Shown in pieces: positions 44,357 through 59,975 of a DNA stretch of 64,000 nt. The notes below the pieces were generated by a model, which saw nothing but the letters and a program-made list of their open reading frames with translations, searched no databases and was not told the origin of the DNA. Where the stretch lies: IMG/VR virus record IMGVR_UViG_2209111019_000003, positions 1 through 64,000 of that record, one strand, 5' to 3'. Position numbers and translations under genes: made by a program. The stretch comes from a virus (Duplodnaviria; Caudoviricetes). The first letter of the stretch is position 1. Each line of letters opens with the position of its first letter.

Positions 44357-44383
44357 CCCTCACCCACAGAAACGGAACCCGCC

Positions 44384-44761: not shown

Positions 44762-44762
44762 G

Positions 44763-45206
44763 GTGCGGGCGGTGGTCCGCACGGTCGCCCGCCGGGTGGG
44801 CCACCGCGGCGCGCTCCTCATCCTCCTCGGCACCATCGCCCTGCTGTACGGGATCAGCCTCATCACCACCCCGCCACTGCCCCATCCGCTCGGCCTGCAC
44901 CTGCTCCTCGGCGTGATGGGACTCCACGGGTGGGGCGGCACCCTCGCCGCTGCCGGTGTCGTCGCGATCCTCTGCGCCCCGCTGAAGCAGGGACGGGACT
45001 GGCCCGGCTTCGCCGTCCTCGTCCTCGTCTGGCTCCCGTGGTCGCTGAGTTTTCTCGTGTCGTGGTGGCCCGCTCACGAGAACCCCCGCGGCTGGGTCTC
45101 CGCGCTGGTGTTCGCCGCACTAGCCGGAGTCCCAGCTGTCGGGGCCGGATGGGAAGAGCCCGAACCACGAGCGCGAGCGACCGATCAGCTACGGAGCACG
45201 AGATGA
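44763..45206 (+). CDS. Membrane protein (lysis cassette)
   Basis: About four transmembrane segments. Confidence 0.7.
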   Translation: MRAVVRTVARRVGHRGALLILLGTIALLYGISLITTPPLPHPLGLHLLLGVMGLHGWGGTLAAAGVVAILCAPLKQGRDWPGFAVLVLVWLPWSLSFLVSWWPAHENPRGWVSALVFAALAGVPAVGAGWEEPEPRARATDQLRSTR

Positions 45207-45526
45207 ACTGGACGACGATCATCGTCTCCGCAATGGCCGCTTTCGGGAGCACGATGGTCGGTCGCGCCGCCAAGCGCACCCCCCGCCAGGAGAAGCGCGA
45301 CGATTTCGAGAAGGTCACGCAGCGCCTCGACAAGGACATCGAACGCCTGGAAGGGCGCATCAGCAGGCAGGACATGCAGATCTCCGGGCAGACCTCAGCG
45401 ATCGGCTACCTGTCGGGGTGGGTGCGGACGCTGGTGCTGTTCACGCGGGCTCAGGGCCTGGAGCCGCCGGCGCCGCCGTTTGTCCCGGACGACGCCAAGC
45501 CCTACCTCCACAACATCGGAGTGTGA
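45203..45526 (+). CDS. Membrane-anchored coiled-coil protein (lysis cassette)
   Basis: N-terminal TM, coiled coil, Pro-rich end. Confidence 0.7.
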   Translation: MNWTTIIVSAMAAFGSTMVGRAAKRTPRQEKRDDFEKVTQRLDKDIERLEGRISRQDMQISGQTSAIGYLSGWVRTLVLFTRAQGLEPPAPPFVPDDAKPYLHNIGV

Positions 45527-45529
45527 GTC

Positions 45530-45883
45530 ATGCCGCTTCCCGGGGATGTGCCGACGTTCACGCTGGTCGCCGACTTTCCGCCGTTGTCGCCGGATGGGGC
45601 GGAGCGGCAGGGGTCGTTGACGTTCACGCCGGTGCCGCCGATCCTCGCCGACGCGGATGCCGTGTTCCTGGGGGTGGAGAACGCGACGCTCAACGCGTCC
45701 GGGTCCATGTCCAAGGAACTGGCCGCGAACGACGCGTTCGATGAGCCGTTCGTGTGGCGGGTCGACGGGAACATCGACGGGCAGCCGCCGTTCTCCGTGA
45801 ACATCTCCGTCCCGGCGTCGGCTGGCACCGTGAACCTGGGGGCCGCAGCGGAGTTCGAGGCGCTCCCCCCGACTACGTGGTGA
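45530..45883 (+). CDS. Fibre-like protein, N-terminal part
   Basis: Beta-rich domain; reading frame ends just after a C6 tract at 45865-45870. Confidence 0.65.
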   Translation: MPLPGDVPTFTLVADFPPLSPDGAERQGSLTFTPVPPILADADAVFLGVENATLNASGSMSKELAANDAFDEPFVWRVDGNIDGQPPFSVNISVPASAGTVNLGAAAEFEALPPTTW

Positions 45884-46902
45884 TCCTCGGCCCGCAGGGA
45901 CCGGAGGGACCAGCCGGGTCAGGCGGTGGCGCCGGTACCCCGTCGCCGACCGTCGTGGCCGGCACGTCGTTCGGAGCGTCCTCAACGGCTGGCGTCGCCA
46001 CGGCCTATTCGCGCGGCGACCACTCTCACGGGACGCCAGCCGCGCCGACGAAGAGCAGCGTCGGCTTGGGCAACGTCGACAACACGAGCGATGTCAGCAA
46101 GCCCGTCTCGACCGCGACTGGCGTAGCGATCGGAACGGTCTCCAGCGCCGTTTCCACGCACACCGCAGCGTCCACGTCGGTGCACGGCATCGCCGACACG
46201 TCGGCGCTCGTCACCACCACGGACCCGCGCCTGACGGACAACCGCACCCCGTCCGGTACGGCCGGCGGGGACCTCGGCGGCACGTTCCCGAACCCGTCCG
46301 TTGCCAAGGTCGCCGGGGCCACGGTCAGCGGCACCCCGGCCACCGGGAAAGTCCTGACGGCGACCTCGGGCAGCGCCGCGTCGTGGCAGTCCCCGTCGGG
46401 TGGCGGGGGTGGCGTGTCGATCGTGTCGCAGGGTGATGACCGGATCGACCTGGAGATCGTGACGCTGGTCAACTCGGGGACGTGGACCGTGGTCCGCACC
46501 TCGGGAGGCGTCGCGATCGGGAAGTCCGTGAAGGCCGCGGCCGGGGACCGCATCCTCGTCGCCCCGTCGTTCATGTACGCGGGGACGCAGTACGAGCTGG
46601 ATCTCGCGGTGATGGGCTCGGACGGGACGAGCATCACCCGGTACGCGGGTTCGTCCGGATCGGGCACGACGCCCGGTGCGGAGGGGTACGCGCCGCTGTA
46701 CACGCAGGCCACGAGCTTCCCGCACATCACCGGTCCGATCATGTTCACGGTCGCCCCGGGCGAGGTCGACGGGTCGGGCCTGTTCACCGTGAACCTCGCC
46801 TACCACGCGCCGAGCCTGTCGGGCACGGACCAGCACATCTACGCCGGCGCCGGATACATCGCCCGCTGGCTCATGCTCAACATCGGCCCCGAACCCGCCT
46901 GA
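45865..46902 (+). CDS. Fibre-like protein, C-terminal part (-1 frame; alternative GTG start at 45880)
   Basis: Collagen-like GPQGPEGPAG, 'RGDHSHG', 'VGLGNVDNTSD', 'GGDLGGTFPNP'. Confidence 0.7.
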   Translation, partial: PPDYVVILGPQGPEGPAGSGGGAGTPSPTVVAGTSFGASSTAGVATAYSRGDHSHGTPAAPTKSSVGLGNVDNTSDVSKPVSTATGVAIGTVSSAVSTHTAASTSVHGIADTSALVTTTDPRLTDNRTPSGTAGGDLGGTFPNPSVAKVAGATVSGTPATGKVLTATSGSAASWQSPSGGGGGVSIVSQGDDRIDLEIVTLVNSGTWTVVRTSGGVAIGKSVKAAAGDRILVAPSFMYAGTQYELDLAVMGSDGTSITRYAGSSGSGTTPGAEGYAPLYTQATSFPHITGPIMFTVAPGEVDGSGLFTVNLAYHAPSLSGTDQHIYAGAGYIARWLMLNIGPEPA

Positions 46903-46915
46903 CCCCGAACACGCG

Positions 46916-46953
46916 ACCGCCCCTGTCTGGCCATCGGGCCGGACAGGGGCGGT
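46916..46953. terminator. Stem-loop between the late operon and the transfer operon
   Basis: ACCGCCCCTGTCTGGCC-ATCG-GGCCGGACAGGGGCGGT. Confidence 0.75.
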
Positions 46954-46970
46954 TCGCTGCGTTGCGGGGG

Positions 46971-47441
46971 TTAGCGCTGGTGGACGTTGGTGGTGGATTT
47001 GCCGAACCACCGGTTCTCCTGGTGGACGTGCGTCTCGTTGTGGATGCGGGGCCGGCGGGCGACGAGGCCCGGCAGGGTGCGGGCGGCGACGACGAAGCAG
47101 GCGAGCCACAGCATGGTGCCGGTGCCGACCGCGGCGAACTCGCCGACGACCTGGGCGGCTCCCCAGCCGGCCCCCGCCGCGAGGGTTCCCCCTCCGATGC
47201 CGGCGCCGAGCATGCGCTGCGCGACGGGGTCCAACAGGGGCTGGGGGGTGAGGTCGCGGGGCTGGTAGACGGCGGGGGCCTGCGCGTATTGGGCGGGGAT
47301 GGCCACGGACCGGTTGGGGTCGTAGGGGTCGGGCACGAACACGATCGGGCCGGGGCGGTACATCTCGATGGGCTGGTGGATGGGGATGGGCTGGTAGGTG
47401 GGCTGCCCGGTCGTGGCGGGCCGCCGGTCGGGCAGCGACAT
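46971..47441 (-). CDS. Spd-like (plasmid spread) membrane protein
   Basis: Pro-rich N-terminus, two TM segments, 'HNETHVHQ' tail; context downstream of traB. Confidence 0.55.
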   Translation of the reverse strand: MSLPDRRPATTGQPTYQPIPIHQPIEMYRPGPIVFVPDPYDPNRSVAIPAQYAQAPAVYQPRDLTPQPLLDPVAQRMLGAGIGGGTLAAGAGWGAAQVVGEFAAVGTGTMLWLACFVVAARTLPGLVARRPRIHNETHVHQENRWFGKSTTNVHQR

Positions 47442-47450
47442 GGTGTTCTC

Positions 47451-48023
47451 CTAGATGGTGGCGGGGGTCTTGCTCGTGGCGGTCTTCGCGGTTTCGGGGA
47501 GTTGCATGTACCAGGCGCCGCCGATCGTGGCGCCGCCGTGGATCTTCCGTTCGTGGGCCTTGAGAGCAGCCGACGCGGTCTTCGCGTCGCGATACCTCGG
47601 CTTCTCGCCCTTGCCGCACGGGCACTTCCAGCCCATGAGCCCGGACCGTTTGTCGGGGCCGAAGCGGGCCTGACGGGCGACCACGGCCCGGCTGACCTTC
47701 ACCTGGGACGGCTTCGCGTCGCACGACTTGGAGCCGGTGAGGAGTCCCTTCTTGTCGTGGGTGGCGATGGTGCCGGTGCCGTGGCATTTGGCGCATCCGG
47801 CGTGGGTGGTGCGGAGGATTGCCGCGTCCTTGCGGGTGCGGACCGTGGCGCGGTGTCCTTCGGCCTGGCGGGCGATGAACAGGGCCAGCCACACGGCCAT
47901 CCGCTCAGGGAACGTCCTGCCGTGGGGGCGGACGGCGAGCCGCTTGCCTGCGGACGGCTTGCGCCGGGCGGGGGTGCGCTTGACGGGCTTCCGGCGGGGC
48001 GTCGGCCGCTTCTTGGCTGGCAT
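47451..48023 (-). CDS. Basic zinc-finger protein of the transfer operon
   Basis: K/R-rich N-terminus; 'CAKCHGTG', 'WKCPCG...H...H'. Confidence 0.65.
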   Translation of the reverse strand: MPAKKRPTPRRKPVKRTPARRKPSAGKRLAVRPHGRTFPERMAVWLALFIARQAEGHRATVRTRKDAAILRTTHAGCAKCHGTGTIATHDKKGLLTGSKSCDAKPSQVKVSRAVVARQARFGPDKRSGLMGWKCPCGKGEKPRYRDAKTASAALKAHERKIHGGATIGGAWYMQLPETAKTATSKTPATI

Positions 48024-48065
48024 GATCGGTGACCTTCCTCTCTACGTCACATATTCGGATCAATT

Positions 48066-48196
48066 GGGCGTCTCAGGGGCGTCTTGTGGCCGTCTTGAGG
48101 GCGTCTCACCTGCGACTTCATGACTGTGGCGAGACGGCCTCAAGACGGCCCCCGGACGGGGTGAAGACGCCCCCGAGACGGGGGTCAAGACGGGGC
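48066..48196. repeat. clt-like locus: two opposed arrays of 8-bp repeats with 11-bp period
   Basis: CGTCT at 48069, 48080, 48091, 48102; inverted (A/G)GACG at 48132, 48143, 48154, 48165, 48176, 48188; consensus SCGTCTYR; overlaps the traB stop codon. Confidence 0.75.
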
Positions 48197-50272
48197 AAAC
48201 AGGGCGGCGGCGGCCTGGTCGACGAACCGCCGCTCCCACCCGCGGGCCTGCTTCCCGTCCACGTACTCCTTGCTGGACTTCGCTGCCGGCACCAGCTCCG
48301 CGAGCAGGGCCTGCAGGCGGGCGCTGTCCTCCTCGGCCCCGGCCGCGACGATCACGGCGGTCGGCAGCCAGGCTGCCTGCCGGTCATCGAACAGCCGCAG
48401 CAGGACTGCGATCTTCGGGGCGCGCGGGTCGTCCAGTCGGTCCAGCCGATCGGCGACACTCTCCGCCGCGCGACCGTCCCGGGTGATGACGTGCAGCAGA
48501 TCAGCCGCGGCCAACGAGTCGTAGTCGAACCACGGCCGGCCCGCCGCTTTGCGGTCCTTGACGGCCTGCCGGATCTGGTCGCGGTCGAAACGGTTCCAAC
48601 GCCATTGGATGGGGCGCAGGAACCCGGGGCCCTGGATGTAGAACTTGCCCGCGTCGTACACCCGCTCGTCGTCCACGGCGGGCCGCAGCCGGTCCGGCCG
48701 GTAGCCGGATGCGGACGCGCCCTTCCCGAAAACCAGAAGGATGTCCTCGCTGCGGGACGCCAGCAGAACGCGGTAGGTGACGGCGCTGGCGATGGCATCA
48801 CCGAGGGCGTCCTTGGTGGCCTCCTGCGCGGCGAAGATCAGGTGGACACCGGTTTCGCGGCCAATCCGCAGCAGCTGGATGGCCAGCTCCTTGGCCTCGT
48901 CGGGCAGGAAGATGAACTCGTCGACTATGCCGTAGATCGTGGGGTCCTCCGGGGAGGGCTCCCACAGGTCGCCCATCTCCTTCCGCGTCTTGATCTTGTT
49001 GCGGGCGGAGGCGATGTCCACCAACTGCTGCAGCCGCTCCGTGCACGCCTTGCCACCCCGGATCGGCGGCAGCGCCATCGCGTCCGCGAACTCGGTCAGA
49101 CCGTCCTTGACGGGGTCCATCTCGATGGCGATGGCGTCCCGGCACGCGGTGATGGCCTCAGCGATGCAGCGCAGCGCACCCTTCGTCTTCGCGGCCCCGG
49201 ATGAGCCGATGACGAGCATCGACATGCCGCGCAGCCGGAACTCCAGCGGCGCCCCGTCCATGCCCCGCCCGTAGACGGCGACGTCCCGGACGGACAGGGA
49301 GTTCGGGGCGTGCACGGTCGGGCGGGGCATGTCGTCGAACGGGTCGGAGGTGACCAGGCGCAGCACGACGTGCGCGGCCTTGCCCGGGTCGGGTTCGATG
49401 AGAGTGCCGCCCTGCTGAATGTCGAAGTGCGAGTCAAGCTGTTCGGCGGCAGCGTTGACACGGCCCGGGGTGGAGCCCTTGAGCTGCAGGTCGATCTCCC
49501 AGCCCCAGCCGCGGTTCCCAAGGACGGTGATGGAACGAGTGTCGATGCCCTCGGCTTCCAGCGCCCGCCGCACACAGTCCTGGACCTGCTGCCCGTCCTT
49601 GCACCAGGCGAGGGGGAACGGCTCCTCACCGTCGTCAATGTCCTCCGCCGCGACGATCTCGGTCGGGCCCAGTTTGGCGTTCAACCGGTACCGCCCGTAC
49701 AGGGTCAGGGCGGCGCCCGCGGCGATCGCCTCGACGGTGGGGGCGGTGGCCAGCGCCTCCAGAGTGCCGAAGCCGGCGCCCTGGTCGAGACCCCACCACG
49801 CCAGGAGGTCGGCGACCGTGAGGCCGCCGGCGAGCTTGCCGAGGAAGCCCCACCGCTGGTGCCGTGTCTGGTGGACCTTCGCCCACTTGGGGCCGTCCAT
49901 GCCGCCGAGACTCTCGATGTGGTCGTGGGCGCGGACGTACCGCCAGCCGAGGATCGTGGACGCGGCGAGGCCGTGGCACAGCCACCGGGTGACGGCCCAG
50001 CCGCCGCGCCCGGTCGCACCGGCCGCGACGATCGCGGCAGAGCCGGTCCGGGTGAGGACGGGCCGCCGGTACGGCACGTACTCGATCATGCCGGGGGCGA
50101 GGTCGTCCTCGTCGGCCGCCGGCTTGGGAGCGTCCTTGGTGAGGTCGATCGTCGGCTGCTCGATGACCTCGCCACGGATCGTCTGCGGGGGCTTCGTCGT
50201 GTCGTCGAGGGGCTTCATCCACTCGGGCACGTCGAGGTCGCCGTCGTGGTGTGCATATCCGTTGATAGTCAT
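48185..50272 (-). CDS. traB: TraB-like FtsK/SpoIIIE conjugative DNA translocase
   Basis: N-terminal TM segments; 'LRLVTSDPF'; Walker A variant GSSGAAKT, 'DPVK', Walker B GIVDE, 'LLRIGRETGVHLIFAAQ'; C-terminal wHTH-like 'ARGWER'. Confidence 0.82.
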   Translation of the reverse strand: MTINGYAHHDGDLDVPEWMKPLDDTTKPPQTIRGEVIEQPTIDLTKDAPKPAADEDDLAPGMIEYVPYRRPVLTRTGSAAIVAAGATGRGGWAVTRWLCHGLAASTILGWRYVRAHDHIESLGGMDGPKWAKVHQTRHQRWGFLGKLAGGLTVADLLAWWGLDQGAGFGTLEALATAPTVEAIAAGAALTLYGRYRLNAKLGPTEIVAAEDIDDGEEPFPLAWCKDGQQVQDCVRRALEAEGIDTRSITVLGNRGWGWEIDLQLKGSTPGRVNAAAEQLDSHFDIQQGGTLIEPDPGKAAHVVLRLVTSDPFDDMPRPTVHAPNSLSVRDVAVYGRGMDGAPLEFRLRGMSMLVIGSSGAAKTKGALRCIAEAITACRDAIAIEMDPVKDGLTEFADAMALPPIRGGKACTERLQQLVDIASARNKIKTRKEMGDLWEPSPEDPTIYGIVDEFIFLPDEAKELAIQLLRIGRETGVHLIFAAQEATKDALGDAIASAVTYRVLLASRSEDILLVFGKGASASGYRPDRLRPAVDDERVYDAGKFYIQGPGFLRPIQWRWNRFDRDQIRQAVKDRKAAGRPWFDYDSLAAADLLHVITRDGRAAESVADRLDRLDDPRAPKIAVLLRLFDDRQAAWLPTAVIVAAGAEEDSARLQALLAELVPAAKSSKEYVDGKQARGWERRFVDQAAAALFAPS

Positions 50273-50275
50273 GGG

Positions 50276-51670
50276 TCAGGCGTCCTTCTGCGCGGTGTTC
50301 TGGCGGGCGGTTTCGGCTGCCGCGACCTTCGCGGCGGGGTGGTAGGGGGCGGTGTCGCCGGGGGTTCGGCGGGGCGGCGTGCCGCCGTTGAAGCGCCGTC
50401 CGTCGGGGGCGTTCGGGTCCCGCTTCTCACGCGGTGACATTTGGGAATCGACCAGTGACTTTCCGTCGTCCGCGACCGCCTCCCGGCGGGCCTGCGCAGC
50501 CCGGCTCAGCTCGTCGATTTCGGCCCGCATCCCGACGAGCTTGTAGCCCGTGACGTAGTACCAGGCGTCACCCCACAGCTGGTCGGAGACGACCGGCAGG
50601 CCACGCGCGGAACGCATGCCCTCGGCGACCTTCCAGACGTCCTCGTGGCCGCTCTGGCGGTCGGCGTCCTTCCGCTGCTGCTCGGCCTCGGCCGCCTTCC
50701 GCTGCGCCTCCCGATCGTCCGCGGCCTTCTTCGCGGACTGCTCCCGCTCGGTCTTCGCCGCGTCCTTCGCAGCCTGCTCCGCGGCGGCCTTCCCCTTAGC
50801 CGCGCGGGTCTCCCGCCACGACGGAATCCCGTCGGCCTTCTGCGCAATGCCGTGCTCGTAGGCCATCAGCACGATCGGCCCGCCGAGCGAGGCGATGGCA
50901 CCGATGAGACCGGCGTTGAACCCGATCCGCGGGTCGTGGCTGCCGTACATGTTGATCGCGGCGGCGATGAGCGCGCCGAGCATGATGCCGATCCGGTAGG
51001 GAGCGACGTCCCGGCGGTGCGCGACGGCCCAGGCAGCACCGAACGCCAGCACCAGCGCCAGACCTTCGAGCAGGGCCGGGGCGGCGATCAGGAAGGGCCG
51101 CTGCCGGTCCCAGAAGTGCAGGAACTGCACCGGCGCGGCGATGATCAGCCCGACGGCGTAGATGCCGCGGGCGCCCCACTTCCAGTACCGCTCGGTGCGC
51201 TGCTGCTCGGCGGTGCGGTCGGCCTTCTGCTGGGCTTCGGCCGCAGCGTCTTCTTCGGCCTTCTTCGCGGCTGCCTGTGCGGCCTTCTTCTTCGCCTCGG
51301 CCTCGGCGATCTTCGCCTCTTCAACGGCGCGCAGCCGTGCGGTGCGCAGCGCGGCCTGTTCGTTGGCGATCTCCTTGGCCTTCGCCTCCTGCACGGCGAG
51401 GATCTCAGCGGCGCGGGCGGCTGCTTCGGCCTCGACGATCTTGGCTTTGGCTTCGGCCTCGCCGATGGCCCGCATGCGGTCGGCTTCGGCGTGCTTGATG
51501 GGGTCGTAGGCCGGCTCGGCGGCCACGGTGGGCTCCTCGATCGGTGCGGCGGGGGTCTCGTTGGTGGCGGCGGCTGGGATGCCGCCGAGGTTTATGGGCT
51601 GCCAGCCGTCCCACTTGGGTGCGGCGTGCAGCTTGCCGTTCGCGGTCCCGTTGAGGGTCTGGCTGGTCAC
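50276..51670 (-). CDS. SpdB/TraA-like coiled-coil multi-pass membrane protein
   Basis: Ala/Glu/Lys coiled coils flanking four TM segments; immediately upstream of traB. Confidence 0.65.
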   Translation of the reverse strand: MTSQTLNGTANGKLHAAPKWDGWQPINLGGIPAAATNETPAAPIEEPTVAAEPAYDPIKHAEADRMRAIGEAEAKAKIVEAEAAARAAEILAVQEAKAKEIANEQAALRTARLRAVEEAKIAEAEAKKKAAQAAAKKAEEDAAAEAQQKADRTAEQQRTERYWKWGARGIYAVGLIIAAPVQFLHFWDRQRPFLIAAPALLEGLALVLAFGAAWAVAHRRDVAPYRIGIMLGALIAAAINMYGSHDPRIGFNAGLIGAIASLGGPIVLMAYEHGIAQKADGIPSWRETRAAKGKAAAEQAAKDAAKTEREQSAKKAADDREAQRKAAEAEQQRKDADRQSGHEDVWKVAEGMRSARGLPVVSDQLWGDAWYYVTGYKLVGMRAEIDELSRAAQARREAVADDGKSLVDSQMSPREKRDPNAPDGRRFNGGTPPRRTPGDTAPYHPAAKVAAAETARQNTAQKDA

Positions 51671-51999
51671 TGCGGGGCTCCTTCAGGCGTCGGGGTGGCG
51701 TATGCGTGGGCGTAGTGGGCCCGGGCGCGGGTGAACTCGTCGGCGAACGCCGCGGTGATGCCGGCGCCGGCGGTCTGGCCGAGCGGGGGCTTTCCGGTGC
51801 GGTCGGCGAGGTACAGCTCCAGCCACGACGCGAGGGTCGCGGCGATGGTGACGATGACGCGGGCTATGCGGAGGACGAGGACGGCCAGGCCGAGGGCCAG
51901 GTGCGCGGCGAGCACCGTCCCGGCGATCACGGCGCGGCGGATGGCGCGGGTGGTGCGCTGCCAGCGCGTCGGCTTGGCGACGACGTAGTACGGGTGCAC
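51667..51999 (-). CDS. Small membrane protein of the transfer operon
   Basis: RBS GAGGAG; hydrophobic core. Confidence 0.65.
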   Translation of the reverse strand: MHPYYVVAKPTRWQRTTRAIRRAVIAGTVLAAHLALGLAVLVLRIARVIVTIAATLASWLELYLADRTGKPPLGQTAGAGITAAFADEFTRARAHYAHAYATPTPEGAPQ

Positions 52000-52092
52000 G
52001 GCGGGCTCCTCTCGGTTCGTGGTGGTCTTGGGTGGCGCCCCGGGCCCGAGTCGATCGGGCGCCCTCGCGGCAGGTGGCCGGGGCTGGGTGGG

Positions 52093-52281
52093 TCAGCGGT
52101 TGCGGTCGACGGCGGCGAGGATCTGGGCGTCGGTGACGCCTGCGGCTCGGGCGTTCTCGATGGCGGTCTTGTCACGGAGGCTGGTGTGGGGCTTGCTCGT
52201 GCCGTCGCTCCCGACGTAGTTGCGGGTCTCGGCTGAGGCGACGACCGCGGCGAGCGCCTCGGCCTGCTTGCGTCCGAACAT
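52093..52281 (-). CDS. Small protein with MFGRK N-terminus
   Basis: RBS GAAGGA. Confidence 0.6.
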   Translation of the reverse strand: MFGRKQAEALAAVVASAETRNYVGSDGTSKPHTSLRDKTAIENARAAGVTDAQILAAVDRNR

Positions 52282-52323
52282 GGGGGTCCTTCCGGGCTGG
52301 GTGGGTGGTCAGCGGCCGCGCTT

Positions 52324-52500
52324 CTACCGGCGGTGCCAGGGGACGTTCTTCTCGGTCTCCAGCACGCGGGCGTTGAGCTCCCGGTAGGTGTCGGTCTCCT
52401 CGGTGACGCCTGTGGCCTGCTCGCGCTGCTGGTTGGCGTGCAGGGCGTTCTTGGCGTCCTTGTGGGCGGCGACGGCGTCGTTGTCCTTGCGTCCGAACAT
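52324..52500 (-). CDS. Small protein with MFGRK N-terminus (possible longer in-frame start at 52608)
   Basis: RBS GGAGGAGG. Confidence 0.6.
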   Translation of the reverse strand: MFGRKDNDAVAAHKDAKNALHANQQREQATGVTEETDTYRELNARVLETEKNVPWHRR

Positions 52501-52604
52501 GGGGTCCTCCTCCTGGTCGATGGCGTGGTGCGGGAAGTAGTGCTGGTCGTGGATCGGGCAGAGCAGGTGCGGGTCGGTGCAGGCGCCGATCGGGTGGGGG
52601 TCGG

Positions 52605-53213
52605 TCACTCGTCGGTCTCTTCGCGGACCGGGGTGGGCACGGGGGCGAGGGCGTTGCGCGCGTAGTCGCGGGCGGCCTGGGCGAATTCCTCGTCGGCGGT
52701 CATGTCGTGTAGTCGTCGTCGCAGGGCGGGATGGGGTCGCCGTGGCCCTGGCCGCACCAGTCGCAGGCCGTCGCGGCACTCACCGGACACCGCCCGTCTT
52801 GGTCCAGCAGGCGGCGGCGTGGGCTTGGGCGATCTCCCGGACCGCCGGCAGCCATTCGTTGACCCTGGCCGTCTCCTGTTCGGGCGTGTCGGTGGTGAGC
52901 GCGCCGGTGTTCCGTCGCCCCCACCAGTCGCAGCCGAAGCAGTCCGCGATGAGGTCGCCGGTCTCGGTCAGGTAGGAGACGTTGACGGTTTCGCCGCCTG
53001 AGGTGGTCGCCTGGGCGAGGACCCCCGCCGCCACGGCTACCGCGCTCACTGGGCACCGCCCTTGCCGGGCTCGACGTCCAAGACGCGCTCCCCGTAGGCG
53101 TCGCAGGCGGCGTTGGCGGCGATGAGCTGCCCGTAGGCGCGGCGGGCATCGGCACGCTGCTTCGGGGTGAGGGCCGGGTTGGTCATGCGGGCCTGCAGCT
53201 CGGTGGCGGTCAT
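52605..53213 (-). CDS. Run of four small coupled ORFs (53046-53213, 52780-53049, 52700-52783, 52605-52703)
   Basis: Chain of ATGA/GTGA overlaps; two have CxxC motifs. Confidence 0.5.
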
Positions 53214-53569
53214 GACTTGACCCCCGCTCCAGCGGCAGCGGCGTACCAGCCGGTGGCCGTCATGATGTCCTGTACCTCAAGGAAGGTGCGGCCCGCGACC
53301 CGCTCCCACGCCTCGAAGTCGGCCCACTGCGAGCCGGCACGGTAGGCCACGATCGCGTCCAAGCAGCGTTCGGCTACCCGGCGCACGTCATCGTTTCCAC
53401 CGATCGCCTGGTGGATCCCGAACGGCAGGGTCGGGTCCCAGCCGTCGCGTTCCAGTAGCGCCAGGCCGTTGGCCAGGACGTCCATGACCTGGGTCGGAGC
53501 GATCGCGGTGCCGGACGGACCGCGCCACATGGCGTCGGTGGGGGGCGGCGGACTCGGCGGGCGGCTCAT
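53210..53569 (-). CDS. Hypothetical protein (DUF6197-like)
   Basis: 'LLERDGW', 'WERVAGRTFLEV'. Confidence 0.55.
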   Translation of the reverse strand: MSRPPSPPPPTDAMWRGPSGTAIAPTQVMDVLANGLALLERDGWDPTLPFGIHQAIGGNDDVRRVAERCLDAIVAYRAGSQWADFEAWERVAGRTFLEVQDIMTATGWYAAAAGAGVKS

Positions 53570-53931
53570 TCGGCACCGTCCTGCATGCCGATGTGGCTGA
53601 GGCCGGCGTGAGCCCAGCCGATCGACTTGTAGAGGGCCTGCGCGTCGCCGACAGCCAACTGCAGCCCCTCGTAGACGAGGCCCAGTTCAGTGGCGAGCGC
53701 GTCACGGTCGGAGCGCAGGTTCCCGTCGCGGTCGAGCTTGTCGACGGCCTGCCGGGTCATCGTCAACGCCTGCGGGAGCATCGACGCGAGGTGCGCGAGG
53801 TGCCCGACCAGGACGTAGGCGTCACCCGGGGTGGGGAGCCCGGTGTACAGGGCGTGGTTGATGCTGCGGATACTCTCGGCCGCGGCCTCGGCTGCCACGA
53901 CAGCCACCGGCGTGTCCGTCCCGGCGCTCAT
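53566..53931 (-). CDS. Hypothetical helical protein
   Basis: 'AAESIRSINH...PGDAY...LPQAL'. Confidence 0.6.
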   Translation of the reverse strand: MSAGTDTPVAVVAAEAAAESIRSINHALYTGLPTPGDAYVLVGHLAHLASMLPQALTMTRQAVDKLDRDGNLRSDRDALATELGLVYEGLQLAVGDAQALYKSIGWAHAGLSHIGMQDGAE

Positions 53932-54179
53932 GCGGCGGCGCTGTCGGCGTAGGCGCGGGCGGCGGCGAGGCCCTCCAGGATCGCGTCCCGGTGGTCACGG
54001 ACCCGGCGGTACGCCTCGTCCATGATCGGGTCGGAGTCGCCGGCCTGGGCAACGACCGGGCGGACGTAGGACACGGCAGCGTGCGCGGCCTTGTCGGCCG
54101 GTGACTGCGGGTACGACGGGGCGATGCGGGCGAGGTGATCGGCGCGGGAGCGCACGCCGGTAGAGTTGGCGATAGCCAT
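53928..54179 (-). CDS. Hypothetical protein, first gene of the transfer operon
   Basis: RBS GAAGGGAA. Confidence 0.6.
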   Translation of the reverse strand: MAIANSTGVRSRADHLARIAPSYPQSPADKAAHAAVSYVRPVVAQAGDSDPIMDEAYRRVRDHRDAILEGLAAARAYADSAAA

Positions 54180-54306
54180 CAGGGGTTCCCTTCAAGAAGC
54201 CTGGTGGTAGGGCCGGCCCGCGAGGTAGGAGTCGCGGTGTCCGGCCCGTCTTTTGTTGTGGGGGGCGCCCGCGGACTGGGTCCGGTAGGAGTGGGCTCCC
54301 GGCCGA

Positions 54307-54428
54307 TTCTCAAATTGGGATTTGAGAACCTGCTGATCCGAAGGTAGGTGCTCACGTGACGGCTCGTCAAGCTCCGGACGAGTGTTATCAAGCCACATCT
54401 TGAGACGGCGCCGGATTCGCCCTACCCT
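54307..54428. promoter_or_regulatory. Divergent promoters with TCAA-N8-TTGA operators
   Basis: Leftward TTGACG-N18-TACCTT (54370-54341); rightward TTGAGA-N17-TACCCT (54400-54428); palindromes at 54307-54328 and 54388-54403. Confidence 0.65.
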
Positions 54429-54434
54429 CAACCC

Positions 54435-54677
54435 ATGGCCAACTCCCTCGACACCGCGCTCGCACCCCTCGCCGACCACATCAGAGCCATCGGCGACCAC
54501 CGCGAGCGCTACGAAGAGATCGAGGCAGCCGAACAACACTTCCTCGCCCTCAAGCGCGCACTCCTGCAGGAGGTCGCCCTCGGACTGCGAGCCCAAGGCA
54601 AGAAGTGGAAAGAGATCGGCGACACCCTGGGCGGCGTCACTTACCAGCGCGCCTTCCAGATGGGCCGTGGCCAGTGA
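54435..54677 (+). CDS. Small HTH regulator (probable repressor of the transfer operon)
   Basis: 'GKKWKEIGDTLGGVTYQRAFQM'; leaderless; divergent from the operon. Confidence 0.75.
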   Translation: MANSLDTALAPLADHIRAIGDHRERYEEIEAAEQHFLALKRALLQEVALGLRAQGKKWKEIGDTLGGVTYQRAFQMGRGQ

Positions 54678-54731
54678 ATCGGTCATGCCACCGAGTCAAC
54701 TGCTGCCGCCCCAGGGACACGATGAGCCCGG

Positions 54732-54790
54732 AGTGCACCGCCAGTGCAGTCCCGGTGCAGGCAGTGCAGCCGTAGTGCAGTAGCAGTGCA
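54732..54790 (+). repeat. Phased GTGCA repeat array
   Basis: GTGCA at 54733, 54744, 54755, 54764, 54775, 54786 (spacing 11,11,9,11,11). Confidence 0.75.
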
Positions 54791-54823
54791 ACTCCCCGCC
54801 ACCAGGCGCCAAGGGGGCCCAGG

Positions 54824-55459
54824 ATGGACGTCATCAGCACGTGGACCGGACGGTCAGCGTGCGCACTCCAGTCGGCCCTCCGCATGACCAACGAGGCATT
54901 CGCCGACCGCCTCGGCGTCCACGTCCGCACCGTCGCCACATGGCACGCAGACCCCGAGAAGGAACCCCGGGCCGAAATCCAGGCGGCACTCGACACGGCA
55001 TACGAGAAGGCAGGGGGCGCGGTGCAGCAGCGATTCGCAGCCCTGTCACGCCCGGCCGTGCCCGCCGCGGAGGTTCAGGCCCTGCGCGTCGCCATCGCCA
55101 TCGTGGTGCGCGGCGACGACGTCCTCCTCGTCTGCCGGCGCGGCGACGATGCCCTGTCGTGGCAGTTCCCCGCCGGCATGGTCAAGCCCGGCCGCGCCCC
55201 CGAGGGTGTCGCCGTACAGGAGACCCTCGCCGAGACCGGCGTGCACTGCGCCGTCCGCGCCCACCTTGGCAGTCGCATCCACCCGGCCACTGGCGTCCTC
55301 GCCTCGTACCAGCTGTGCGACTACCTGACCGGCGACGCCGCGAACTTGGACGAGGTCGAGAACATGGCCGTCGCCTGGGTGTCCCGAGCTGATCTGCCGC
55401 GTTTCATTCCCGCCGACCGGATCTTTCCGCCAGTGCTCACCGCCTTGGAGGCAGCATGA
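54824..55459 (+). CDS. XRE-type HTH fused to NUDIX hydrolase
   Basis: 'NEAFADRLGVHVRTVATW' HTH; Nudix box 'GMVKPGRAPEGVAVQETLAETGV' (degenerate). Confidence 0.85.
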   Translation: MDVISTWTGRSACALQSALRMTNEAFADRLGVHVRTVATWHADPEKEPRAEIQAALDTAYEKAGGAVQQRFAALSRPAVPAAEVQALRVAIAIVVRGDDVLLVCRRGDDALSWQFPAGMVKPGRAPEGVAVQETLAETGVHCAVRAHLGSRIHPATGVLASYQLCDYLTGDAANLDEVENMAVAWVSRADLPRFIPADRIFPPVLTALEAA

Positions 55460-55866
55460 CCACCGCCGACCAGCCCGTCGTCTCCATGGCGATCATCGCC
55501 CACGAGGGGGCCGTCCTGATGATCCGCCGGCGCCAGCGCGAGGGCGAGCTGCTGTGGGCGTTCCCGGGCGGCGCGGTCGAGGCGGGGGAGGCGCCGGAGC
55601 AGGCCGCGGTCCGCGAGGTCGCCGAGGAAGTCGGTCTGACGGTCGCCGCCGTGCGGGTGCTGGGTGAGCGCGTCCACCCGAAAACCGGCCGGCCCATCAG
55701 CTACACCGCCTGCACCGTGGTCGACGGCGAGCCGACCGTCCTCGACGCGGAAGAGATCGCCGAGGTCGCCTGGGTCAAGCACAGCGAGATCCCCGCGCAC
55801 GTGCCCTACGGCCTGTACGACCCGGTCCAGGCGTACCTCGACGAGGTACTCGCCCCCTCCGCCTGA
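55456..55866 (+). CDS. NUDIX hydrolase
   Basis: Canonical Nudix box 'GGAVEAGEAPEQAAVREVAEEVGL'. Confidence 0.9.
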   Translation: MTTADQPVVSMAIIAHEGAVLMIRRRQREGELLWAFPGGAVEAGEAPEQAAVREVAEEVGLTVAAVRVLGERVHPKTGRPISYTACTVVDGEPTVLDAEEIAEVAWVKHSEIPAHVPYGLYDPVQAYLDEVLAPSA

Positions 55867-55879
55867 CCCCGCACACGCC

Positions 55880-55909
55880 ACCGCCCCGACGCCGTAGCGC
55901 CGGGGCGGT
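55880..55909. terminator. Stem-loop between convergent genes
   Basis: ACCGCCCCG...CGGGGCGGT. Confidence 0.6.
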
Positions 55910-55941
55910 TTGCTGCGTGTGCCGGGGTTCGGCGCGGCGGG

Positions 55942-56124
55942 TCACGCGGGGGTGTTGCGGCGGTCAGCAGCCCGGGTGGCCGGGGGCGCGTTGACGGCGG
56001 TGAGTGCGGCGACTTCGGCGGCCTCGGCGGCGCACAGCGTGCAGCCGGGGGTGAGCCCGTCGTGGCCGTGCTCCCAACGCTGGTGGATGCTGGCCATAGC
56101 CGCACGCAGTTCGGACACGAACAC
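55942..56124 (-). CDS. Small His/Cys metal-binding peptide (paralog of 9928-10071)
   Basis: RWEHGHDGLTPGCTLCAAE; RBS GAGGAG. Confidence 0.55.
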   Translation of the reverse strand: MFVSELRAAMASIHQRWEHGHDGLTPGCTLCAAEAAEVAALTAVNAPPATRAADRRNTPA

Positions 56125-56151
56125 GACAGGCTCCTCTCGGGCGGGCGGGAC

Positions 56152-56325
56152 TCAGGCGGGGCGGGTGATGGTGCGCTTCCACTGCTGACGCTCGCCCCGC
56201 TTGCGGGCACGGCGGGCGGTCTTGCGGTCGCGGCCGGGGGCCTGTCCGCAGCAGTGGCAGTCCCTGCCGCCGGGCCCGTCGGGGCAACGCCGGCCGATCA
56301 TCGGGGCCTTCGCGTCACGCGTCAT
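56152..56325 (-). CDS. Small basic Cys-containing protein
   Basis: RBS GAAGGA; 'CHCC...RRARKRGERQQW'. Confidence 0.5.
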   Translation of the reverse strand: MTRDAKAPMIGRRCPDGPGGRDCHCCGQAPGRDRKTARRARKRGERQQWKRTITRPA

Positions 56326-56344
56326 GGCGTGTGGTCCTTCCTGG

Positions 56345-56890
56345 TCAGGCGGCGAGGGTGGCGTCGCCGTTGATGACGGGTTCGCGTCCGGCGGCGGTGA
56401 GCATGAGCAGGTTGCGCCAGCCGCGCCCGTTGTCGGGCTGGGTGTTGTCGGTGATCAGGCCGCGCTGCTGGAGGGCGGCGATGGTCTGTTCGGTGGCGTT
56501 GATCGGGAGGTCGTTGGCGAGTCGGGCGAGTGCCCGCTTCATCGCGGGGGTGAGGTTGGGGCTGGCCATGGCGGGCTCCTGCGGGTCGATGGTCATGCGG
56601 TCGGTGCGGAATGTGGTGTCCTCGCCGTCGCGCCAGTCGTAGGCGCGGCAGGTGATGCGCCCGGCGTTGGTGGGGTCGAGGCGGCGGGGCGTGATGTTGC
56701 GGACGCTGACAGTTCCGGTGGTGTCGACGTACCTGATCCGCACGGTCGCGCCCGCGTCGATGGCCCGGTAGAGGGCGACGAGGAGTCGGTAGTGGGCCCC
56801 GCGGGCGGCGGTTACCAGGCTGGGGCCGGCGGTGAGTGCGGCACGGATCGTGCGGCGGATCAGGCGGGCGGTACGGGCACGAGCATTCAC
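56345..56890 (-). CDS. WYL-domain protein with C-terminal winged-helix-like segment
   Basis: 'AIDAGATVRIRYVD..G..SVRNITP...AYDWRDGEDTTFRTDRM' WYL core, then 'IAALQQRGLI...LTAAGR'. Confidence 0.75.
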   Translation of the reverse strand: MNARARTARLIRRTIRAALTAGPSLVTAARGAHYRLLVALYRAIDAGATVRIRYVDTTGTVSVRNITPRRLDPTNAGRITCRAYDWRDGEDTTFRTDRMTIDPQEPAMASPNLTPAMKRALARLANDLPINATEQTIAALQQRGLITDNTQPDNGRGWRNLLMLTAAGREPVINGDATLAA

Positions 56891-56958
56891 GGGATCCCCC
56901 AGGCGGTGCGGTGCGGGTGGTTCGGGTGCCCGCCCCGGGAAGGGGCGGGCGGAGTGGG

Positions 56959-57258
56959 TCAGCGGAGGTAGGCCAGCGGATTGACGGGGGAGTCCGGGGT
57001 GCACTCCGCGACCAGCCAGCGGTCGAACCGGTTGGTGCGGGCGCCGAGGTAGGCCGGGCTCTTCTCTTCCTCGCGGTCCCGGTCGTTCATCCGGCTTTCC
57101 AGCTCGTCCATGAGCCAGCCGCGGGTGATCTCGACGGCTCGGCCGGACTGGCCGTTGGTGAGCATCCAGGTCTCGGCGAGCCGCTCGTTCGACAGGCGGC
57201 CGATGGAGGCGCGTGCGATGGCCTCGGACTGCTTGGCGTTGTCCTGAATGCTTCCCAT
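56959..57258 (-). CDS. Hypothetical protein
   Basis: RBS AGGGAG; first gene behind a clear promoter. Confidence 0.65.
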   Translation of the reverse strand: MGSIQDNAKQSEAIARASIGRLSNERLAETWMLTNGQSGRAVEITRGWLMDELESRMNDRDREEEKSPAYLGARTNRFDRWLVAECTPDSPVNPLAYLR

Positions 57259-57297
57259 GTCCGTCTCCCTGCTCGCCGCTTCCTTGCTGATGTCTCC

Positions 57298-57400
57298 ACT
57301 TTAGCCAAGCGGCTTGGGCAATACAAGTAGGCCAAGCAACTTGGTCAAGATTCTTTAGGGATGACCAAGCTTGCCCCATGGCTATGGCCAAGCGGCTTGT
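57298..57400. promoter_or_regulatory. Divergent promoter region with CCAAG-N3-CTTGG operators
   Basis: Palindromes at 57305-57317, 57332-57344, 57388-57400; leftward TTGTAT-N17-TAAAGT (57326-57298). Confidence 0.75.
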
Positions 57401-57415
57401 GCAACCATGTGGGGT

Positions 57416-57715
57416 ATGACCGACTACAGCCCGAGCCCGCAGCTCGCCGCAGCGCTGGCCGAATACGAAAAGGCGCAGGCGGCAGAAGAATCAGCCCGGA
57501 CCAACCTTCGGGCCTCAGTCGCCGACGACCTCAAGACCTACGACGTGACCAACGAGGTCATCGCGCCCCATCTGCCATGGTCCAGCGAGACCGTCCGGGG
57601 TATTGCCCGCGAGTACGGCGTGCCTCGCAAGAGGAAGCCCACCGTCAGGTCGATCAAGCCGAAGAAGCGCACCGGCACGCACACCCCCGCCCCGCCCGCC
57701 GCAGAGGAGAGTTGA
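57416..57715 (+). CDS. Small HTH regulator
   Basis: 'TNEVIAPHLPWSSETVRGIARE' HTH-like; divergent across the operator array. Confidence 0.65.
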   Translation: MTDYSPSPQLAAALAEYEKAQAAEESARTNLRASVADDLKTYDVTNEVIAPHLPWSSETVRGIAREYGVPRKRKPTVRSIKPKKRTGTHTPAPPAAEES

Positions 57716-57718
57716 GCC

Positions 57719-57976
57719 ATGACCGAGACTTCCGAGGCCAGGCACTGGCTGTACGTGGCCATCCGCGCTAACGCCAAGGTCAACGCGGTCCGCGAGCTAC
57801 ACCGCCAGGTGATGGCTGGTGGCGTGGCCATGGGCATTTGCCAGGAGTGCGGCAGGCCGTCTCCGTGCCCGACTGCTCAAGTCGTTGCTCGCGAGCCTGA
57901 CGGCCCGTGCGACTGCGGACCGGACTGCCCCAAGAACATCCCCGTTGCCCCGTCCGACGCGAGGGGCGGCAAGTGA
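57719..57976 (+). CDS. Small zinc-binding protein
   Basis: 'VRELH...CQEC...PCPT'. Confidence 0.6.
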   Translation: MTETSEARHWLYVAIRANAKVNAVRELHRQVMAGGVAMGICQECGRPSPCPTAQVVAREPDGPCDCGPDCPKNIPVAPSDARGGK

Positions 57977-58674
57977 GCGAGACGGACCGCGCCGAGATGG
58001 TGCGTTACGACCAGCTCGCCGCCCGCGTGTACGGGGAGCGCCGCATGCCGTCAGGCACGCGGGATCTGATCCTCGCCCTCGGCTGGGTGACGCTCCGGGA
58101 CCCGCGACGCCACGACCCGACCGTCGGCATCTGGGCCCGGGCAAGGGATGTGATGAACGCCGACAACAAGACCATGTGGCAGCTCATCAAGGACGACGCT
58201 CCCCGGTACGAACACGACTGGCACGCCGACCCCCACGGTTGCCAAGCCCCCATGGTTCGCATCGAGCGGCTCTGCGAGCGCAATGCGGTCGACCACTTCA
58301 CTGAGGCCGACACCGCGACGGGCCGATTCCGCACTTGGGGCTTCTGTTCCCGGCCCCGCTGCCAGGCCTACGGCAAGGGCATCTACGAGCGGGCGCAGCG
58401 CTCCAACGCTGCCGCCCCTGCGGCGATCCCCAACACGGGCGGCCTGCTGCCGCTGTTCTTCGAGTGGAACTGGGAGGCGAAGTACGCCAAGGCCGACCCG
58501 CTGTGGACGGCTCCGTCTTACGGCCTGTCTGCTGACGAGTGGCCGACTATCGCTGGCGAGGAGCCGGTGTACGCCTTCCCGAAACTGCGGCTGATCACCT
58601 CAGGTGGCGAGCTTGTCGGCTGGCCCTACCCGCGCCTCTTCCCCGCCCCGTCCGACCCGGGGAGCGGCACGTGA
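57973..58674 (+). CDS. Hypothetical protein (Cys-containing)
   Basis: GTGA overlap; high-GC3 codon usage. Confidence 0.6.
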   Translation: MSETDRAEMVRYDQLAARVYGERRMPSGTRDLILALGWVTLRDPRRHDPTVGIWARARDVMNADNKTMWQLIKDDAPRYEHDWHADPHGCQAPMVRIERLCERNAVDHFTEADTATGRFRTWGFCSRPRCQAYGKGIYERAQRSNAAAPAAIPNTGGLLPLFFEWNWEAKYAKADPLWTAPSYGLSADEWPTIAGEEPVYAFPKLRLITSGGELVGWPYPRLFPAPSDPGSGT

Positions 58675-59930: not shown

Positions 59931-59940
59931 CCCGCTCCTT

Positions 59941-59975
59941 CGCCCCGTCTGCCGCTTCGTGTGGTGGGCGGGGCG
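59941..59975. terminator. Stem-loop between convergent genes
   Basis: CGCCCCGTCTGCCGC / GTGGTGGGCGGGGCG with G-U pairs. Confidence 0.55.

Follow-up and report, generated by a model that had tools for sequence, protein, structure and literature searches.

A putative TraB-clt-Spd-type DNA-translocation module in temperate Streptomyces phages

The block and the phage that carries it

The IMG/VR virus record IMGVR_UViG_2209111019_000003 is one contig of 73,038 bp (IMG/VR linear virus class; CheckV completeness 84%), and its bases 1-64000 form the window analysed here. Between the lysis genes and attP of this phage lies a leftward operon of ~13 tightly packed open reading frames (ORFs; 46971-54155, minus strand), which includes the genes of an FtsK-fold, TraB-like DNA translocase (P0001) and of an SpdB2-like membrane protein (P0002), followed on the other strand by a small candidate regulator and two NUDIX proteins (Table 1). 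An array of phased repeats resembling a clt locus adjoins the translocase gene, and a second phased array lies upstream of the NUDIX genes. As the DNA is ~70% G+C, genes were called by the G+C content at third codon positions (GC3); the operon genes are all intact and of high GC3. The subject of this report is whether the block formed by these genes and arrays is a phage-borne version of the DNA-transfer machinery of Streptomyces plasmids.

The rest of the record has the layout of a lambda-like temperate siphophage. Packaging, head, tail and lysis genes, an integrase, attP and a repressor switch are all found, and by Pfam the early region also encodes a helix-turn-helix (HTH) protein and a phage zinc-finger protein. 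The attP core is single-copy in the record, a second copy being absent even with five mismatches. Since attP is intact and internal, the record represents the excised form, with the transfer-type block inside the phage.

An earlier note on this DNA, made from the sequence alone, had described a leftward operon with an FtsK-like ATPase and a coiled-coil membrane protein, a phased repeat array and NUDIX genes, all behind a full head, tail and lysis set. The operon was recovered by phrog_12531, Foldseek and sequence features, the backbone by Pfam and gene calls, and the NUDIX genes by PF00293, while the one array turned out to be two. The block does lie between the lysis genes and attP, as the note had it, but ~6.7 kb of other genes intervene after the NUDIX pair. 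Similarly, no integrase lies in the block, but the integrase is not the only tyrosine recombinase of the phage, a second one being encoded elsewhere (11029-12057).

Table 1. Features of the block, its surroundings and the phage backbone (positions as in the window, continued into the record where they exceed 64000)
Feature	Position	Strand	Basis or remark
156-residue protein, hydrophobic C-terminal half	46971-47441	-	operon's last gene; GC3 0.97
190-residue basic Cys-rich protein, putative zinc-binding	47451-48023	-	conserved partner downstream of translocase and array
clt-like array	48065-48193		~10 CCGTCT-type 8-mers, exact 11-bp phase
P0001, FtsK-fold, TraB-like dsDNA translocase, 695 residues	48185-50272	-	phrog_12531, Foldseek, tree
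P0002, SpdB2-like membrane protein, 464 residues	50276-51670	-	sequence features, hhalign
110-residue membrane protein	51667-51999	-	start overlaps upstream gene's end
Eight small ORFs, 55-121 residues, some hydrophobic	52093-54155	-	GC3; promoter-proximal
Divergent control region	54156-54434		between operon and 80-residue gene
80-residue candidate regulator	54435-54677	+	divergent from operon
Second phased array	54742-54790		upstream of NUDIX genes; GTGCAG x4 and GTGCAA, 9-11-bp spacing
NUDIX protein 1, 211 residues	54824-55459	+	PF00293, 1.1e-13
NUDIX hydrolase 2 (Pif-like), 136 residues	55456-55866	+	PF00293, 9.5e-24
WYL-domain protein	56345-56890		between NUDIX genes and attP
Stand-alone GntR winged helix, 95 residues, no effector domain	60927-61214	-	PF00392, 1.9e-16, 59.9 bits
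XRE HTH	62035		between NUDIX genes and attP
attP core, 26 nt	62623-62648	+	24/26 identity to tRNA-His(GTG) 3' end, Streptomyces chromosome
Tyrosine integrase	62766-64019	+	PF00589, 2.5e-19; runs past window end
HTH_31 divergent pair	64421-64843; 65054-65401	-; +	Pfam; followed by RecT and exonuclease
Endonuclease VII	14186		Pfam
Putative TerL, 518 residues	14851-16407		position and size; without Pfam match
SPP1-type portal	16507		Pfam
Scaffold	19058		Pfam
Capsid	19900		Pfam
Tail tube	23398		Pfam
Tape measure, 1549 residues	24824-29473		tail genes up to ~35 kb
GH25 lysin	43472-44356		Pfam
Last lysis-side gene	46066-46902		

The translocase P0001

P0001 is predicted to consist of long N-terminal helices, a motor domain and a C-terminal winged helix. 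Pfam gave no match for the protein, with none to PF01580 at an E-value of 0.01, and the PHROG family phrog_12531 ('FtsK/SpoIIIE-like') matched it at 2.2e-74. An AlphaFold model built from 30 homologs has a predicted local distance difference test (pLDDT) score of 72, with the core (residues 220-600) mostly at 80-94. Structural similarity search using Foldseek revealed that the model best resembles the FtsK motor (PDB 2ius), with an E-value of 1.6e-16 and a TMt of 0.66, followed by the conjugative coupling protein TcpA (9e-13) and then EccC. The Walker lysine K362 and the Walker B residues D451/E452 are invariant across 30 sequences. In the model, three long helices span residues 79-198 at a pLDDT of 55-68, and the last 100 residues, modelled separately at a pLDDT of 90.7, adopt the α-β-α-α-β-β topology of a winged helix.

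The family of P0001 comprises at least 343 proteins at E ≤ 1e-10 among 8000 candidates scored, and the 120 homologs listed share 47-93% identity with it and come mostly from Streptomyces. Taken together, sequence and predicted fold point to a protein that is TraB-like, yet outside the curated TraB family. In genomes G006-G010, which hold the loci L025, L031, L027, L020 and L022, the family goes unrecognised by both PF01580 and the NCBIfam model NF041214 (plasmid_TraB).

The motif GxxGSAK[S/T] was considered as a TraB signature and rejected, as the TraBs of pJV1, pCQ4, pFP4 and pFRL2 carry Gly in place of its Ala; a chromosomal copy in G006 reading GMNGSAKS, which had prompted the idea, is frameshifted. 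This copy is a canonical plasmid_TraB gene (L063/L068, G006:C1:1711005-1715114) whose two parts, in different frames, score 507 and 284 bits to NF041214. It probably belongs to a decaying actinomycete integrative and conjugative element (AICE) in a chromosome that also carries the phage-borne family.

A clt-like array that varies with the winged helix

The array lies in the 160-bp gap directly 3' of the translocase gene. Read in the direction of the gene, six direct copies are followed by a 20-bp spacer containing CGCAGGT and then by four inverted copies, the direct copies beginning inside the gene's last codons and the first of them overlapping the translocase stop codon. The word CGTCTY occurs nine times in these ~130 bp, compared to 101 occurrences in the entire 73-kb record and no more than three in any other stretch of 180 bp. 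Published statements are cited here and below from excerpts of the papers named. According to these, clt loci are repeat arrays beside or overlapping the 3' end of tra that are bound by the TraB C-terminus (PMC4447253; PMC3583192), and the clt of pWTY27 overlaps the tra 3' end and has both direct and inverted repeats (PMC3583192). The phage array likewise consists of repeated 8-mers that adjoin and overlap the translocase 3' end.

The same layout is found at the same place in five related viral loci (L004-L008), and it recurs in 15 loci from bacterial genomes (L018-L032, hereafter the genome loci), L026 being truncated by the end of its contig. Of 58 loci examined, 43 have a translocase ORF that our script recognised, and in 41 of these the top 6-mer is present four or more times in the 218 bp around the stop codon, figures that are without background control. 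The repeats fall into at least six motif classes (CCGTCT, CCGTCC, CTGCTC[G/A], CTGCTA, CCCCTCG and GATCAG type), with constant positions and phasing.

Among 21 sequences, the identity of the C-terminal domain is 0.61 within a motif class and 0.27 between classes, compared to 0.78 and 0.60 for the motor, statistics that are confounded by phylogeny, several loci being duplicates of one record. In L101, every copy has switched from CTGCTCG to CCCCTCG/GTCCTCG, and the wing has changed from NPRGYK to NPNGYK. The sequences of array and winged helix thus appear to change together, as expected of a TraB-clt pair, and the concerted change of all copies of an array would imply ongoing selection on the protein-DNA pair.

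One further locus is, like L101, a case in which repeats and C-terminal domain have switched. In L023 (Streptomyces sp. 549, 9791-12100), the motor nests in the CCGTCT clade, the repeats are of a third type (GCCGATCAG), and the C-terminal domain resembles that of the CTGCTC class, an apparent domain swap.

Relationship to known transfer systems

A tree of 35 motor domains (386 columns; quick IQ-TREE run with SH-like approximate likelihood ratio test support only) was rooted on chromosomal FtsK. The phage-borne family forms one clade (support 97) apart from chromosomal FtsK, and this clade is sister (99) to the pFP1-type plasmid Tra proteins together with the FtsK-like protein of phage Samisti12. 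That group joins the TraBs of pWTY27, pJV1, pCQ4, pFP4 and pFRL2 weakly (81-84). Since several branches are long, the deep branching order is unsure.

The closest non-phage relatives of P0001 are the Tra proteins of pFP1 (NC_006912) and of the NBC_00285 plasmid, with 34% identity over 60% of the length. The order of small ORFs, a DUF2637 membrane protein of ~480 residues and translocase is the one found in the block, a GntR gene coming first in pFP1, and pFP1 likewise has direct-plus-inverted repeats after the tra stop codon, with the CGCAGGT centre common to the phage arrays. However, the pFP1-type Tra proteins are longer (863-935 residues) and have the canonical P-loop GGPGSGKS. Moreover, pFP1 has a full-length GntR repressor adjacent to the operon, and it is a plasmid replicon with no virion genes in the compared stretch.

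In the transfer systems of pSVH1, pIJ101, pJV1 and pWTY27, as predicted for the block, one FtsK-like translocase recognises DNA through its C-terminal domain. Their clt likewise consists of 7-9-mer repeats that adjoin or overlap the tra 3' end, SpdB2 combines a coiled coil with transmembrane (TM) helices, and the small spd genes are translationally coupled (PMC4447253; PMC3583192). By contrast, their TraBs are distant in sequence, fall into a separate clade and have a Walker B of the EE type, and these modules reside on plasmids, whereas the present one is part of a 73-kb phage genome. In pWTY27 (NC_013667, L073 4565-4713), RefSeq annotates the gene after traB/clt as 'phage major capsid protein', an odd gene to find on a plasmid of 14 kb.

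The AICE pSAM2, with its int-xis-rep, KorSA, TraSA, Spd and Pif genes, resembles this phage in having a tyrosine integrase that inserts into a tRNA gene, in addition to Tra, Spd-like and NUDIX (Pif-like) genes (PMC2440964). Of the AICE type, too, is the combination of NUDIX genes with a GntR or XRE regulator, represented here by two NUDIX genes, a GntR HTH and an XRE HTH. The differences are that RepSA, RepAM and Prim-pol were not found among the ORFs scanned in 46-64 kb, and that the integrase and attP are those of a complete phage backbone, which includes repressor/cro and RecT as well as genes for packaging, head, tail and lysis.

Another partial precedent is pZL12, which depends on a tra gene for its conjugal transfer (Wang et al. 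2012, PMC3583192) and has been called an extrachromosomal temperate singleton phage (PMC7157519). It is comparable to the present phage with its TraB-like gene in being a phage that carries tra genes (PMC3583192), but it replicates as a plasmid, whereas this phage has attP and an integrase. No plasmid Rep or Par was found in the scanned ORFs, an absence that is not proven for a record 84% complete. Among the P0001 phage matches listed (the 30 best and a spread of 45, of 89), pZL12 does not appear, its presence in the searched collection being unconfirmed. SpdB2 homologues have been described on the temperate phages phiC31 and VWB and suggested to help spread phage DNA; as excerpted, that precedent covers SpdB2 homologues only, not a translocase or clt (PMC4447253). 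A literature search, which did not cover the primary papers on pZL12 and pFP1, returned no account of a translocase-clt-SpdB-NUDIX module in integrating phages.

All 89 isolated-phage matches to P0001 are from Streptomyces phages. The Samisti12 protein belongs to the same PHROG as P0001 and, as described above, to the sister clade, but it has 604 residues and a P-loop that aligns as APGGGKS, and it is flanked by tRNAs and unrelated genes, SpdB-like and NUDIX genes being absent there. Samisti12 is one of the BE-type Streptomyces phages, which we take to be lytic.

Such relatives lend weight to a different view of the block, namely that it serves to partition the phage within the infected or lysogenic mycelium. 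In the manner of FtsK and SpoIIIE, the translocase would bind the array and clear or pump phage DNA through septa as these close, in sporulation or in vegetative growth, and spores and compartments would thereby inherit the phage. Conjugation makes little sense in phages presumed to be strictly lytic, the best structural match of P0001 is indeed an FtsK motor, and the array sits on the phage's own DNA. Streptomyces phage papers also list FtsK-like genes and tie them, speculatively, to host development or replication (PMC13587820; PMC11536984). Nevertheless, an integrated prophage segregates with the chromosome and needs no such system, SpdB2-like and Pif-like NUDIX genes are hallmarks of transfer or spreading and not of segregation, and the closest relatives from cellular elements are plasmid Tra proteins rather than chromosomal FtsK. 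On balance, we consider a partitioning role unlikely.

The SpdB2-like protein and other operon genes

P0002 has an N-terminal coiled coil rich in Ala, Glu and Lys, a hydrophobic core and a charged C-terminal part. Alignment of the P0002-family profile against the pFP1 DUF2637 protein by hhalign, with this single sequence as target, gave a probability of 93.8% and an E-value of 1.8e-7 over 159 columns. One homolog 60% identical to P0002 is named DUF2637 by UniRef, and P0002 occupies the same position relative to the translocase as the DUF2637 protein of pFP1. A BLAST relative is present at this position in 12 of the 15 genome loci. These resemblances suggest that P0002 is a remote homolog of the SpdB-type pore proteins of plasmids.

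The Cys-rich protein has no family match, and it is a conserved partner of the translocase: a homolog (47-59% identity) lies directly downstream of it in 14 of the 15 genome loci, the fifteenth contig ending there, and further homologs are found in G001 and G005. Homologs of the 110-residue membrane protein occur in ten of the genome loci and in L004-L008; its match to SLATT_1 (2.1e-4) is weak and below the cut-off, as is that of the 156-residue protein to DUF6251 (3.1e-4). The latter has no BLAST relative in the 15 genome loci. The eight small ORFs could be regarded as spd-like by position only. One of them matches DUF6197 weakly (1.2e-3), and the others have no family match; related loci likewise have DUF6197 in two of their flanking ORFs.

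The NUDIX pair and the control region

NUDIX 1 has a degenerate Nudix box and an N-terminal extension of 85 residues that looks XRE-HTH-like by eye, whereas the box of NUDIX 2 is intact (GX5EX7REVAEEVGL). Homologs of NUDIX 1 (59-72% identity) are found in six of the 15 genome loci, and both NUDIX genes likewise in six; in a seventh locus, L032, there is a single weak NUDIX match. In pSAM2, the transfer-immunity factor is the NUDIX protein Pif (te Poele et al. 2008, PMC2440964).

These genes raise the question of whether the block is instead a prophage system for exclusion of, or defence against, incoming conjugative plasmids, AICEs and phages, for example by competing for transfer pores or by NUDIX-based signalling. 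A PADLOC search matched NUDIX 2 to the candidate PDC-S07 (1.8e-19) and P0001 weakly to mad8 (6.5e-6), Pif is itself an immunity factor (PMC2440964), and a WYL-domain protein is encoded nearby. The PADLOC matches are, however, weak or to generic domains, and defence would leave unexplained both an array in cis on the phage's genome that co-evolves with the translocase and the SpdB-type partner. We hold this explanation to be quite improbable.

The earlier note had called the divergent gene a repressor. A divergent ORF of 80 residues is present, but scans for HTH and other families gave no match that would justify the label. Its homologs (41-46% identity) occupy the same position in four of the 15 genome loci and in G005. 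The control region contains a perfect palindrome, TTCTCAAAT-N4-ATTTGAGAA, at 54307-54328, and the related loci have palindromes of their own at the same place, as judged by eye. A consensus promoter scan of 46700-56200 yielded no promoters and five terminator-like sites against 3.2 expected; because it found nothing, the promoter/operator reading of this region is one made by eye. Arrays of CTGCA[C/T] equivalent to the second phased array are found in L020, L025, L027 and L030.

A strongly conserved stretch upstream of the operon's first ORF (54156-54300, and the same place in L020, L025, L027 and L030) has repeated CTCCTACC words besides a hairpin (GGGCCGG...CCGGCCC) and may act as a leader or attenuator, although Rfam gave no match there.

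The stand-alone GntR protein resembles the N-termini of the GntR regulators beside the pFP1-type transfer operon, and is predicted to be a DNA-binding domain of the Kor/TraR class.

The block as a recurrent part of temperate phage genomes

Several lines of evidence bear on whether the block belongs to the phage or was inserted as an independent element. As the earlier note had stated, the block is not bounded by an integrase, att core or Rep of its own: the scanned ORFs of 46971-62700 contain no integrase or Rep family, and the direct repeats flanking the block reach 13 bp, compared to 16 bp in a control region. With flanking repeats within the control and a single-copy att core, an independent inserted element was rejected. 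The flanking repeat is the 13-mer CCGCCTGACCCCG at 46895-46907 and 55859-55871, which spans the stop codons of the last lysis-side gene and of NUDIX 2; since its length is within the control, it is probably due to chance.

A single-protein scan found the block translocase in five IMG/VR viral contigs, and a family-alignment scan in 42, including those five, so that the block that was to be sought in related phages is indeed present there. Of the 15 loci from a one-genome-per-species collection, 14 are from Streptomyces and one is from Catenulispora. The phage-AICE hybrid of the earlier note is thus not a one-off but a widespread module of Streptomyces prophages. The first five virus records are 75-90 kb long and 93-100% complete, one of them with direct terminal repeats and a CheckV completeness of 100%. 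All five encode an SPP1_portal protein and a tyrosine integrase, and three a PF05065 capsid; PF04860 (Phage_portal) gave one weak match below the cut-off among them. The terminase of the present phage is found in none of the five, which are different phages sharing the block. Two of them were compared in full: the tape measure is 26-30% identical, two lysis-region proteins ~40%, little else is common, and the block proteins are 33-66% identical.

In the flanks of the genome loci, 76 ORFs of at least 190 residues include, by Pfam, six portal, two capsid and two prohead protease proteins as well as terminase domains, together with four full-length GntR/UTRA regulators and four NUDIX proteins; no plasmid Rep is among the 25 families listed for them. 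Most genome loci have the block at another place than here, upstream of terminase and portal. Because it has no att, int or Rep of its own and recurs beside portal and terminase, the block is taken to belong to the phage and not to an inserted AICE. It appears to be a recurrent part of temperate phage genomes, at varying places, and is probably exchanged among temperate phages.

An alternative is that the block is a passenger, that is, a captured AICE or plasmid remnant, or a moron of unrelated use, with no role in the movement of phage DNA. It lies in an accessory region between lysis and attP on the strand opposite to the late genes, its proteins are 55-66% identical between otherwise mostly unrelated phages, which suggests horizontal exchange, and the stand-alone GntR HTH looks like a truncated Kor. 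A remnant fits poorly, however, with genes that are all intact and of high GC3, with a family of at least 343 full-length homologs at E ≤ 1e-10, and with array/winged-helix co-evolution, including the concerted change in L101, which requires ongoing selection. Nor does it fit with the lack of an att, int or Rep belonging to the block, or with its different place in most genome loci. We therefore judge a passenger to be very unlikely.

Proposed function and its weighing

Altogether, the block is in our view probably a translocation module of the TraB/clt/Spd type that belongs to the phage. The suggestion of the earlier note that a temperate phage contains a Streptomyces-type dsDNA-translocation module is upheld to this extent by the FtsK-fold translocase, the array, the SpdB2-like protein and the NUDIX genes. 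Whether the module moves the phage genome between compartments or cells is, on the basis of gene content and likeness, an evenly balanced question. For the reading as a whole, a phage-borne version of TraB-clt-Spd that is conserved in related Streptomyces prophages and moves phage DNA, we lean slightly in favour.

In the proposed mechanism, the array would act as the clt on which the translocase oligomerises when the phage genome is circular, be it excised or replicating. With the help of the SpdB2-like protein and the small membrane proteins, the translocase would pump this dsDNA across septal cross-walls into neighbouring hyphal compartments, and possibly also into other mycelia where hyphae are in contact. 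Transfer might be held off, or prevented between phage-carrying cells, by the NUDIX pair and the small regulators. That transfer could proceed independently of virions is something we purely infer. Mating between mycelia is no more likely than spread inside a single one.

A number of observations weigh against this interpretation. At the level of the translocase, NF041214 scores P0001 at 29.8 bits against a cut-off of 800, and PF01580 misses the block translocase in three genomes carrying family members. Genome-wide, NF041214 gives family members 27-41 bits, less than the 65-67 bits of chromosomal FtsK. In the P-loop GxSG[S/A]AK[S/T], Ala replaces the Gly of functional plasmid TraBs, FtsK and EccC. 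A Kyte-Doolittle scan at a threshold of 1.6 found no TM segment in P0001. Many of the top matches of the C-terminal domain in a PDB search are winged-helix proteins, but the best E-value is 0.038 and none is significant; FtsK-gamma is absent among the matches listed. It follows that P0001 is not the AICE/pSVH1-type TraB of the earlier note, in view of the NF041214 score, the lack of a PF01580 match and a clade of its own. The comparison with chromosomal FtsK that the note had called for came out in two ways: P0001 stands apart from chromosomal FtsK in the tree, but fails both curated models.

The partners and the setting raise further objections. The link of P0002 to SpdB2 is remote, its alignment target being a single sequence, and none of 27 P0002-family members matches Pfam DUF2637 at E ≤ 1. 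This phage has no full-length GntR repressor of the Kor type next to the block. Phylogenetic confounding, as noted above, affects the array/winged-helix co-variation. Among the isolated-phage matches listed (the 30 best and the spread of 45), the relatives are BE-type phages of 120-135 kb with 31-37% identity, and in Samisti12 the 6 kb around the FtsK-like gene are free of repeat arrays. Finally, a temperate phage that excises normally goes on to grow lytically, and a transfer-competent, non-lytic state must therefore be postulated.

What is new here is that integrating phages have, as a standing module, TraB-clt-Spd machinery of the plasmid type whose divergent translocase is missed by current models. 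Should the module do what its anatomy suggests, mycelial bacteria would have temperate phages that move as naked dsDNA between compartments or cells. This would blur the line between phage and conjugative element and bypass receptor-based resistance, and it would change models of phage spread, lysogeny and gene flow in Streptomyces soil populations. More tentatively, a large unrecognised group of integrating Streptomyces siphophages might have a virion-free, receptor-independent route by which they lysogenise or infect neighbouring compartments and mycelia, with the NUDIX pair blocking transfer into carriers.

The older suggestion that SpdB2 homologues spread phage DNA would gain a defined protein, a DNA site and natural specificity variants. 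In addition, censuses of actinomycete conjugative elements probably undercount this translocase family, because the Pfam and NCBIfam models used do not detect its members; the AICE screen by Ghinet et al. 2011, for example, used PF01580 (PMC3218068). The natural array/winged-helix specificities could also serve as orthogonal DNA-transfer tags in Streptomyces engineering.

Other features of the phage genome

Opposite to the late genes, a cassette at 35239-42359 (minus strand) encodes a family-2 glycosyltransferase, an NAD-dependent sugar epimerase/dehydratase, a methyltransferase and a group-1 glycosyltransferase, and two of its genes have relatives in G001 at 49-67% identity. As a moron, it may bring about lysogenic conversion by altering a glycopolymer of the cell wall. 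The second tyrosine recombinase has 342 residues (PF00589, 30 bits) and a 79-residue partner, the two occupying 11029-12293 on the minus strand, opposite to their neighbours; they may represent either a dimer resolvase or a small element inserted there. The early region also encodes three DNA methyltransferases (5559-9387), two of the N6/N4 and one of the C5 type, which presumably serve anti-restriction.

ARAGORN detected no tRNA in the window, and Rfam no family in 44000-64000. A sequencing-run search returned 15 DNA runs with a share of at most 0.20 each and listed no RNA run, which is not evidence either way. Megablast of 14000-35000 gave tape-measure matches of 43-71 bp only. Megablast of 42000-64000 gave no match among phages and, against plasmids, a 0.6-kb piece in two only. 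Over 627 bp, this piece (57985-58611) shares 82.5% identity with a gene annotated as 'hypothetical protein' on a Streptomyces plasmid of 92 kb, and it falls inside a 233-residue ORF (57973-58674) that is without a family match.

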